This document shows, in pieces, positions 352 through 3,334 of a stretch of 3,334 bases of DNA (position 1 is the stretch's first letter; each line of letters opens with the position of its first letter). Location of the stretch: NCBI RefSeq assembly GCF_003334785.1, contig NZ_QOWV01000051.1; one strand, given 5' to 3'. The notes below the pieces were generated by a model. That model saw nothing but the letters and a program-made list of their open reading frames with translations, had not been told where the DNA came from and searched no databases. Source of the stretch: Escherichia coli. GTDB taxonomy: Bacteria; Pseudomonadota; Gammaproteobacteria; Enterobacterales; Enterobacteriaceae. The position numbers and the translations under genes were made by a program.

Positions 352-504
352 CTACTTAGATAACTGAGCCTTTACTGTATCTGCCCCTGCAAGCAGGAAC
401 CCAACAGTTAAGAACCACCCCCAGCCATTGATACCTTTTAGCGCTAGAATTGCTGCGCAAATGATGGCTGCTATAGGGACTATCTGGTACAGAAAATACT
501 TCAT
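352..504 (-). CDS. Hypothetical small hydrophobic protein (50 aa), possible membrane peptide
   Basis: Hand-translated ORF absent from the supplied track: ATG at 504..502 (- strand), stop TAG at 354..352. Product MKYFLYQIVPIAAIICAAILALKGINGWGWFLTVGFLLAGADTVKAQLSK has two hydrophobic segments. Weak SD-like GGGGT 7 nt upstream of the ATG; possible promoter GTGACA(561..556)-17-TCTCAT(538..533). Contains rare ATA and CTA codons. No recognisable family. Confidence 0.3.
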   Translation of the reverse strand: MKYFLYQIVPIAAIICAAILALKGINGWGWFLTVGFLLAGADTVKAQLSK

Positions 505-582: not shown

Positions 583-864
583 TTAGTGATAATCCTCGAG
601 ATCCACGTCAAAGACGTTAGGTTCTTCGAGCTTAAACACTACGCGCCAGTTTCCATTGACCTCTAACGAATACTCTCCTTGACGGTCTCCCTTCAATGGA
701 TGGCAGCGCAATGCCTTTAAATCCATCATATCCTGCAAGTTCGTCGCTGTGCTTAAGGCTGTTAGGATCAGCTTCAGACGTTGAGTAAACTGTTGCGGAA
801 TTCCTGCGTTGTTACCTGTTTCGGCAAACTTACGCAAACCTTTATGCTTGATATTTATGATCAT
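583..864 (-). CDS. higB: HigB-family toxin (plasmid maintenance system killer protein, RelE/ParE superfamily mRNA interferase)
   Basis: 93-aa ORF from the track. Motifs IKHKGL..F...G....GIP, HPLKGDR.G..S..VNGNWR and C-terminal DVD.EDYH match my recollection of the HigB/killer-protein family. ATG at 864..862 with GGTG SD-like sequence 4 nt upstream; stop TAA at 585..583. Confidence 0.85.
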   Translation of the reverse strand: MIINIKHKGLRKFAETGNNAGIPQQFTQRLKLILTALSTATNLQDMMDLKALRCHPLKGDRQGEYSLEVNGNWRVVFKLEEPNVFDVDLEDYH

Positions 865-1001
865 TAATCACCATCCCATATTTGTTTAGATAGAAACATC
901 GCAGTTTATTTTTCCGGTTCATCCGTATTTCCATTGCAAACCCCTTGCTCTATTTGAATAAATGACGTAGGTTTTACTTAACCAAGTCGCATTTTAATCT
1001 G

Positions 1002-1029
1002 TTGACATTGGTTTGATGCGCTGTACAAT
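1002..1029 (+). promoter_or_regulatory. Near-consensus sigma70 promoter, rightward, presumably driving higA with a roughly 170-nt leader
   Basis: Seen in sequence: -35 TTGACA (1002..1007), 16-bp spacer, -10 TACAAT (1024..1029). Predicted start near 1036. Confidence 0.5.
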
Positions 1030-1094
1030 GCCGGGGCCTTGAATTTCACATCAAGTACCCACATCATAAGGAATGATTAGACGCACCAATGTGC

Positions 1095-1123
1095 ATCATA
1101 ATGTCATTCTTTTTTTTAGTCAA
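1095..1123 (-). promoter_or_regulatory. Near-consensus sigma70 promoter, leftward, candidate higB promoter with a roughly 220-nt leader
   Basis: Seen in sequence on the - strand: -35 TTGACT (1123..1118), 17-bp spacer, -10 TATGAT (1100..1095). Predicted start near 1087. No better promoter was found closer to the higB start codon. Confidence 0.45.
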
Positions 1124-1208
1124 CAATGAGTTGCGTTATGCGCAATGCGCAATCTGAAAACGCAATAGGCCTATCTTTTTAAAACTAATATAGGCTTCAG
1201 AGGAAGGT

Positions 1209-1505
1209 ATGATTAATCTTGTCGATCCAGTACATCCAGGGGTTTTTATCCGTGAGATGTTTATGGAACCGTTTGAAATATCAGCCGCGGACCTGTCTGA
1301 AAAACTGCATGTATCACCTTCCACTCTAAGTAGAGTGCTGAATGGAAAAGCTGATTTAAGTGTTGAGATGGCATTAAGGCTTTCTCGAGTTCTTGGTCGC
1401 AGTGCCGAGTCGTGGATAAACATGCAGACTCAATACAGTCTTAACGCGAGCAGGAAGTCACCTAATGTCATTAAGGAATTAGATGAATTGGTTCCTATAT
1501 TTTGA
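1209..1505 (+). CDS. higA: HigA-family antitoxin (XRE-type helix-turn-helix addiction module antidote protein)
   Basis: 98-aa ORF from the track. N-terminal VHPG..IRE.F.EP...S...L...L.VS...LSR.LNGK..LS.EMALRLS...G.S.ESW.N.Q..Y.L matches the HigA-family HTH pattern as I recall it. ATG at 1209 with GAGGAAGG SD immediately upstream; stop TGA 1503..1505 followed by a terminator hairpin. Confidence 0.85.
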   Translation: MINLVDPVHPGVFIREMFMEPFEISAADLSEKLHVSPSTLSRVLNGKADLSVEMALRLSRVLGRSAESWINMQTQYSLNASRKSPNVIKELDELVPIF

Positions 1506-1579: not shown

Positions 1580-1683
1580 AACGAAAAAACCACCCGGCAA
1601 GGTGGTTTTTTCGAAGGTTCAGTAACCGGCAAGTTTCTGAACCAGGGTAACTGGCTTGGAGGAGCGCAGTCACCAAAACTTGT
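1580..1683 (-). ncRNA. RNAI: RNAI antisense copy-control RNA of a ColE1/p15A-type replicon
   Basis: - strand reads ACAAGTTTTGGTGACTGCGCTCCTCCAAGCCAGTTACC...AAAAAACCACCTTGCCGGGTGGTTTTTTCGTTT, closely resembling p15A RNAI as remembered, ending in a terminator hairpin plus U-run. Ends are approximate to within a few nt. Confidence 0.7.
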
Positions 1684-2501: not shown

Positions 2502-2696
2502 TTATGTTCCTGTTTCACTTTCGGTCTCAAAGCGAACCTGGATGCTGTTCTGGAGTTCTTCCGCGAGTTCGTGCAGTCGTTCGCACATGGCCGCCTGTTC
2601 GTCGGCATCCAGAGCATCCAGTTTTTCAAGCAGTGTCAGGCTCTGGCTTTTGATAAATCGCGCCATATTCAGCGCAGTTTGTTGCTGTTTGTTCAC
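2502..2696 (-). CDS. rop: Rop/Rom (RNA one modulator) copy-number control protein
   Basis: 64-aa ORF from the track. MNKQQQTALNMARFIKSQSLTLLEKLDALDADEQAAMCERLHELAEEL aligns with pBR322 Rop (MTKQEKTALNMARFIRSQTLTLLEKLNELDADEQADICESLHDHADEL). Start is GTG at 2696..2694, as in pBR322 rop. Convergent with RNAII, as in pBR322. Confidence 0.85.
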   Translation of the reverse strand: MNKQQQTALNMARFIKSQSLTLLEKLDALDADEQAAMCERLHELAEELQNSIQVRFETESETGT

Positions 2697-3257: not shown

Positions 3258-3334
3258 TGTCCGAAAATGTGTCTCATGGGCACCGTATGCGCCCAAACCG
3301 ATCGCCATTCACTTTCATGCATAGCTATGCAGTG
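3258..3334. repeat. Terminal redundancy: exact 77-bp copy of positions 1..77, indicating a circular molecule of about 3257 bp
   Basis: Checked base by base: 3258..3334 equals 1..77. The window ends at 3334, so the match may simply be truncated there. Confidence 0.9.

Follow-up and report, generated by a model that had tools for sequence, protein, structure and literature searches.

Divergent higB and higA genes on small ColE1-type plasmids: a conserved layout with predicted opposed promoters in a shared control region

In the canonical higBA toxin–antitoxin (TA) loci the toxin gene higB comes first in a single operon with higA, transcribed from one autoregulated promoter, and the operators O1 and O2, where HigA systems have been characterised, overlap the −35 and −10 elements of that promoter (PMC12266136). 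The higB/higA locus discussed here, contained in 3334 nt of Escherichia coli DNA (contig NZ_QOWV01000051.1; this whole stretch is called the window), differs in that the two genes are on opposite strands, 344 bp apart, and in that this holds for the whole clade of closely related loci; furthermore, the candidate operator is found next to the toxin promoter and not over it, and two predicted promoters face each other in place of one. With the HigB–HigA pair of Rts1 (Proteus vulgaris) it shares the two protein families and the location on a plasmid, the toxins being 39% identical over their full length, and with Rts1 and the canonical loci in general it shares the equivalents of the catalytic residues H54, D90, Y91 and H92, as well as an antitoxin of the helix-turn-helix (HTH) dimer type. 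The locus has the HigB and HigA family features that were tested and lacks the canonical single-operon organisation.

By analogy, its architecture appears nearer to that of an excludon, or of the face-to-face promoter switch of P2/186-type phages (pR/pL in phage 186), with echoes of the type I TA loci that have a divergent small RNA (sRNA); to our knowledge, neither an excludon nor a face-to-face switch has been described for a type II TA pair. The likeness to the phage switches consists in the opposed promoters, here predicted, and in an HTH regulator encoded on one side. Excludons, namely divergent genes with overlapping 5′ untranslated regions (PMC12288877), resemble the locus in the facing promoters, in the transcript overlap (approx. 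50 nt) and in the interference and mutual antisense control that would be expected, and differ from it in that here the overlap is predicted from sequence. Type I loci with a divergent sRNA (tisB/istR-1, zorO/orzO and hok/sok, reviewed in PMC4147584) are similar in having a short structured RNA, in our case a predicted one, that originates from a strong promoter opposite a long toxin 5′ leader, and in the overlap of a leader open reading frame (ORF) with the toxin start. However, the toxin of the present locus is, by family assignment, a soluble RNase with a protein antitoxin and not a small membrane peptide, and the predicted RNA is not clade-wide. Finally, in RacR–YdaS/T of the rac prophage an HTH repressor and a toxic gene also diverge from a shared region (PMC5700373), but RacR does not belong to the antitoxins that bind their toxin, and YdaS falls outside the RelE family of RNases.

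The genes and the region between them are the following.

583–864, minus strand: higB toxin gene, 93 amino acids, ATG start; putative HigB/RelE-superfamily ribosome-dependent mRNase, the function being that assigned to the family (PF05015, alignment with 4mct_B).
1209–1505, plus strand: higA antitoxin gene, 98 amino acids, ATG start; predicted HTH (Xre/Cro type) protein of the HigA family (TIGR02607, HTH_3).
865–1208, no strand assigned: shared control region between the start codons, 344 bp; 336–356 bp in all 15 distinct spacers of the clade.

The ORF listing, in which the two start codons face apart across the spacer, and the RefSeq annotation of identical plasmids, in which these two genes are arranged in the same way, agree with the positions and strands that an earlier note on this DNA had given for higB and higA. 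The family assignments of the note were borne out by profile searches. Residues 5–93 of the toxin cover model positions 3–91 of the 91 of Pfam PF05015 (HigB-like_toxin; E 6.2e-15), and the whole protein can be aligned with the P. vulgaris HigB of known structure (4mct_B, E 1.4e-17). Residues H55, D91, Y92 and H93, which are invariant in an alignment of nine homologues including the Rts1-type HigB, correspond to the catalytic H54, D90, Y91 and H92 of the P. vulgaris enzyme, all four of which are critical for HigB activity (PMC5027501). The antitoxin scores 96.3 bits against the NCBIfam HigA equivalog model TIGR02607, twice the curated cut-off of 47.7, contains an HTH_3 domain (residues 21–67, E 3.4e-11) and matches the solved HigA structures 7csv, 6jpi and 2icp. 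Both proteins are intact members of the HigB and HigA families, with the catalytic residues of the toxin kept. As a separate observation, one metagenomic copy of the toxin gene (L030, positions 2001–2285) carries three single-base insertions in homopolymer runs, by which the frame is broken and then restored; they are most likely an assembly or sequencing error and do not indicate a pseudogene.

The divergent, non-operon arrangement that the note had pointed out was confirmed in a survey of gene order in homologous loci, 28 of which were contributed by a metagenome scan, with both genes placed in each locus by tblastn. Where the toxin is at least 64% identical to that of the window, 27 of 27 sampled loci are divergent, with 15 distinct spacer sequences of 336–356 bp; where it is at most 46% identical, all 10 sampled pairs are co-directional, in the order higB–higA with gaps of 0–105 bp, and the Rts1-type locus is among them. 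The annotated relatives with a toxin 72–77% identical (Enterobacter cloacae pSZECL_f, E. coli CREC8 p5, Klebsiella oxytoca pCAV1335-5410 and Erwinia amylovora pEAR5.2) are all divergent, with spacers of 336–352 bp, and E. mori pHSW1412-2 has the spacer and higA in common with the window plasmid, its toxin gene spanning the record start. Two more distant lineages are divergent as well. The outgroup L050/L051 (L050 689–1575; L051 959–1828), from Citrobacter freundii and Klebsiella pneumoniae plasmids of 3.0–3.6 kb, has a HigA 50–53% and a HigB 35% identical to those of the window and a spacer of 266–269 bp; in L042/L043, an AT-rich metagenomic plasmid, the spacer is 378 bp (L042 850–1973). Every sampled member of the clade has both genes, and HigB and HigA diverge in parallel across the sampled loci.

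Because it recurs in all close relatives and in two further divergent lineages, the divergent layout is, on this comparative evidence, no accident but a trait that a group of small-plasmid HigBA modules keeps stably and under selection. An invertible element was ruled out by the same orientation in 27 of 27 loci, no search for flanking inverted repeats having been made. The module was found in 26 of 5426 complete E. coli genomes, plasmid-borne in every case, and in the plasmid collection 109 records contain the toxin and 109 the antitoxin at 60% identity or more. The hosts of these small plasmids, at least 109 in number, are E. coli, Salmonella, Klebsiella, Enterobacter, Citrobacter and Erwinia, many of them clinical isolates. 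The earlier note had held that the layout would lose its novelty if it were routine among homologous loci and had a documented function: routine it proves to be, and no documented function was found in the literature searched. Neither a divergent higBA nor these plasmid proteins, the latter sought by accession, were described in full-text literature searches, which had subscription-only papers outside their scope, so that divergent higBA loci are common in sequence databases and apparently undescribed.

The 15 distinct spacers were aligned, and the conservation of each element was measured on eight representatives. The mean column identity of the spacer is 0.69, most of the region being 54–66% conserved with sharp conserved islands, and matches to the sigma-70-type consensus were used to predict two promoters, from which the extent of the leaders was derived.

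1002–1029, plus strand: predicted rightward promoter, TTGACA-16-TACAAT (11/12), with a start near 1036 and a higA leader of approximately 173 nt.
1095–1123, minus strand: predicted leftward promoter, TTGACT-17-TATGAT (10/12), with a start near 1088 and a higB leader of approximately 224 nt.
1036–1088, no strand assigned: predicted overlap of the two 5′ leaders, approximately 50 nt mutually antisense, placed from the promoter positions.

In the rightward promoter the −35 element has a column identity of 0.96 and the −10 element one of 0.88, with flanks at 0.54–0.59; each of the 15 distinct spacers contains this promoter at the homologous place, with 9/12 matches in L020 and 10/12 or more in the other 14. 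For the leftward promoter the corresponding values are 0.98 and 0.85, the surroundings of both promoters being at 0.54–0.66, and the match is at least 10/12 in all 15. The distance between the −35 elements of the facing promoters is 118–121 bp throughout, a facing pair of such quality occurs in 0.2% of 2000 dinucleotide shuffles of the spacer, and an equivalent pair is present in the outgroup L050/L051. Since the promoters point at each other, the leaders would overlap by approximately 50 nt and the rightward polymerase would have to cross the toxin promoter.

Exactly over the leftward promoter lies a hairpin.

1068–1117, plus strand: hairpin followed by T8, candidate intrinsic terminator or attenuator (stems 1068–1077/1103–1112, inner stem 1083–1086/1091–1094).

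The fold predicted for 1034–1119 (−22.3 kcal/mol, z −4.1) consists of a 5′ stem-loop, a linker, a long 3′ hairpin (1068–1112) and eight U, and the two-hairpin shape is also predicted in other lineages with differing sequences (z from −1.8 to −4.1). In an alignment of nine sequences, 86% of the cells in the core of the 3′ hairpin are paired versus 8–42% with slid partners; five of the eight hairpin pairs show compensatory changes, and the observed covariation score was reached by no shuffle. The U-run follows the hairpin in four of five lineages, and in L050/L051 a 9-bp hairpin, also with compensatory changes, lies over the toxin promoter. By taking these predictions together, a terminated RNA of approximately 80 nt, starting from 1036 and antisense to the start of the higB leader, is likely to be made in most members, though not universally. 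An assignment of the hairpin to one strand by folding energy was dropped, the difference between the strands being inconsistent, and a known RNA family in the spacer was sought with Rfam, which at E ≤ 1 finds RNAI at 1581–1681 and otherwise weak chance hits. The spacer, with two conserved predicted facing promoters of the sigma-70 type and a covarying hairpin, fits the earlier proposal that the two genes depend on separate promoters or on control at the RNA level.

A further conserved island is found next to the toxin promoter.

1131–1152, no strand assigned: candidate HigA operator, TTGCGTT-A-TGCGCAA-TGCGCAA, that is, the palindrome TTGYGCA-A-TGCRCAA with an extra upstream half-site.

The region has a column identity of 0.90, lies 7–8 bp upstream of the predicted leftward (toxin) −35 element and approximately 100 nt into the predicted higA leader. 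The consensus TTGYGCA-A-TGCRCAA is invariant, several members having a perfect 15-bp palindrome, and the arms vary symmetrically (TTGTGCA..TGCACAA versus TTGCGCA..TGCGCAA). Since an RNA hairpin with a 1-nt loop is impossible, these symmetric changes point to a dimeric DNA-binding protein, for which HigA would most likely be the obvious candidate. The TTGCGCAA-type motif beside the toxin −35 element is retained at the same distance in L050/L051. An operator motif shared with the canonical relatives was also looked for and rejected: the palindrome that lies directly upstream of higB differs from one canonical lineage to the next, which gives no cross-support for TTGCGCAA. The palindrome could act as a roadblock on higA transcription, or in repression or activation of the toxin promoter.

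The observed part is the identity of the two proteins together with a conserved layout and conserved motifs, and we consider it probable that the locus encodes a cognate HigBA pair of type II in which the operon has been replaced by two opposed units sharing a control region of approximately 340 bp, in an excludon-like manner. The stronger rightward promoter (1002–1029) would transcribe toward higA and the leftward one (1123–1095) toward higB, so that the toxin:antitoxin ratio would be set by opposed promoters in place of operon coupling. Rightward transcription over the toxin promoter may keep higB expression below that of higA through occlusion or collision, and pairing between the two leaders may add a brake on higB at the RNA level, as in an excludon. 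In most members the hairpin and U-run would probably stop part of the rightward transcripts: termination would yield the approximately 80-nt RNA, complementary to the beginning of the higB mRNA, and read-through the higA mRNA. HigA, as an HTH dimer, would most likely bind the palindrome at 1131–1152; bound there, it could be a roadblock to the transcription of its own gene and could also modulate the toxin promoter, and, by analogy with the rest of the family, HigB would be neutralised by direct HigA binding. In this scheme the activity of the promoters, the ends of the transcripts, the interference, the binding of HigA and the neutralisation are predictions. A more specific version, that of a widespread plasmid HigBA lineage with an excludon-type switch, in which the ratio would be set by opposed promoters together with a short antisense RNA from the attenuator, and HigA would act from beside the promoters, is put forward tentatively, as a possibility with less in its favour than against it.

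Several observations weigh against this scheme. Both promoters are consensus matches, and in one subgroup a good match to a promoter is found close to higA (CTGAAA-16-TATAAT), so that dependence of higA on the distal promoter may not be general. In the E. cloacae subgroup and in L050/L051 a hairpin is retained but no U-run follows it, and the short RNA therefore cannot be universal. A simple terminator scan made no call at the 1068–1117 hairpin, and the folding energies of the two strands do not differ consistently, the plus strand not being favoured. The palindrome overlaps neither of the predicted core promoters, unlike the operators of the characterised HigA proteins (PMC12266136). Furthermore, three invariant blocks fall outside the explanation: CCCCTTGC (941–948) and TGACGTAGG (963–971) in the predicted higB leader, with column identities of 0.88–0.92, and GCCTTGAA (1036–1043, column identity 0.97) at the predicted rightward start. 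For the latter, a sigma-32-like promoter could be the explanation: CTTGAA-N14-CCCACAT at 1038–1064 on the plus strand resembles the sigma-32 heat-shock consensus (CTTGAA-N13-15-CCCCATnT), and a CCCAT-like box is found at the same distance in four of five lineages (alignment A5).

Among the other explanations, the one that survives best is a plain rearrangement, namely an ancestral inversion after which each gene has an ordinary promoter and the usual HigA repression, the facing geometry and the hairpin being inconsequential. Both genes are indeed ordinary members of their families, the antitoxin reportedly has a promoter of its own in canonical higBA loci too (PMC5906591), and the higA-proximal promoter match of one subgroup would also fit. 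However, the 118–121-bp promoter spacing, the hairpin and the spacer length stay constant while the surroundings drift to 54–66% identity, and the same geometry is found in an outgroup whose toxin is just 35% identical. We therefore regard a plain rearrangement as unlikely, although it is the strongest of the competing accounts.

A second explanation turns the emphasis from HigA to RNA, and concerns one additional feature of the toxin leader.

842–934, minus strand: possible leader ORF, 30 codons, overlapping the higB start and preceded by the invariant GCAAGGGG; a weak candidate.

A leader ORF of 23–30 codons is found in every lineage, ending between −2 and +22 of the higB AUG, and in two subgroups it overlaps higB by ATGA or TGATG. 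In mok/hok a leader ORF overlaps the toxin start, and the arrangement in the present loci weakly suggests translational coupling of the same kind. A conserved leader peptide was considered and rejected: the peptides of the subgroups are not alignable, and the substitutions are coding-like in the subgroup of the window and not in another one. A structured higB leader was rejected as well, with a fold of 1088–845 at z −0.65 and a pairing of the TGACGTAGG block that shows no covariation. In a control of the type I kind, the approximately 80-nt RNA would be the main repressor of the higB mRNA through antisense pairing and RNase III, perhaps by way of the leader ORF, with HigA in a secondary role. 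The predicted RNA is typical in its succession of 5′ stem-loop, linker, terminator hairpin and U-run, with the z score of −4.1 and the covariation given above, its sequence is complementary to the start of the higB leader as predicted, and the overlap of the leader ORF with the higB start in all lineages recalls mok/hok. There is also an antisense precedent in a type II system, that of aMEF in mazEF (PMC8749433). Against it stand the missing U-run in the E. cloacae subgroup and L050/L051, the position of the antisense overlap approximately 90 nt upstream of the ribosome-binding site of the leader ORF, the lack of an Rfam match for the predicted RNA and the constant presence of an intact HigA, and we judge such control improbable as the main mode, more so than a plain rearrangement.

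The third explanation adds a gene to the module, encoded downstream of higB.

352–504, minus strand: conserved hydrophobic membrane ORF of 50 amino acids, carrying no annotation, approximately 80 nt downstream of higB and with its own ribosome-binding site.

This ORF is conserved across the clade at 38–86% amino acid identity, with the motif LA(F)xGxxGWGWFL...ADTV (GWGWF ORF in the following). Searches against Pfam, NCBIfam and PADLOC gave no match, the sole hit being phrog_14810, of unknown function, and a profile search retrieved 538 representative proteins of 40–60 amino acids, none of them named. The terminator scan found no terminator between higB and this ORF, and the two are probably co-transcribed. 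That the membrane protein might be a functional partner of HigBA in a three-part module is suggested by its occurrence on small plasmids next to very different HigB/HigA pairs, in three gene orders, as in L042 where the GWGWF ORF immediately follows higA. However, ColE1-type plasmids of 4.8 kb that lack higBA carry it too, next to an unrelated cargo, an ATPase, on which ground a third TA component was rejected, and neither the E. cloacae subgroup nor the large-plasmid higBA loci have it. A three-part module is thus very unlikely, and the GWGWF ORF, since it occurs on plasmids without higBA, is treated as part of the backbone: it is probably a ColE1-type backbone gene near the point of cargo insertion and outside the TA pair.

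Least probable of all is that HigA is solely a transcription factor, acting like RacR on ydaS or on other genes and neither binding nor neutralising HigB; the fallback of the earlier note, a stand-alone regulator with the toxin neutralised in another way, is likewise not favoured. Divergent pairs of a repressor and a toxic gene do exist (RacR–YdaS, PMC5700373) and the palindrome adjoins the toxin promoter, but HigA passes the HigA equivalog model and resembles HigA solved in complex with HigB, the co-occurrence of the two genes is strict (109 records each) and the divergence of the two proteins matched, and in characterised HigA proteins toxin binding and transcriptional repression go together (PMC12266136).

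The remaining features describe the plasmid that carries the locus.

1581–1681, minus strand: RNAI (Rfam, 91 bits).
2502–2696, minus strand: Rop gene, from the annotation of identical plasmids.
1512–1536, no strand assigned: GC-rich hairpin with T-runs, called by the terminator scan as a bidirectional terminator, between the higA stop and the origin, at the end of the higA unit.

Since its first 77 bases recur at the end (1–77 = 3258–3334), the window is one full circular unit of 3257 bp, and it is 99.6–100% identical to dozens of plasmids of 3255–3258 bp from E. coli, E. fergusonii, Salmonella and Shigella. The presence of RNAI and Rop identifies it as a small ColE1-type plasmid. At positions 174–203, by eye and against the cer consensus, we recognised what is presumably a cer-like core for dimer resolution by XerC/XerD (GGTGCGCGTAA-TGCGACG-TTATGGTAAAT), the XerD-like arm of which was located in the window sequence. 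On related ColE1-type plasmids, ORFs of 37–48 amino acids within the RNA-primed origin are annotated as ‘replication initiation protein’ (L003 1552–1698; L004 1111–1224; L051 537–650), a label that looks like an annotation artefact.

Current models of type II TA regulation take a shared operon for granted, whether they concern translational coupling, the autoregulation of one promoter or conditional cooperativity. How far such coupling is needed can be tested directly in a conserved lineage whose genes are uncoupled and whose promoters, as predicted, oppose each other, and the locus, of approximately 1 kb, would be a compact system for the study of transcriptional interference and antisense control of a toxin. 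TA finders that look for adjacent genes on the same strand probably miss divergent higBA as a pair. If the proposal of an excludon-type switch is true, these HigBA modules would combine type I with type II control in a natural hybrid that may be bistable.

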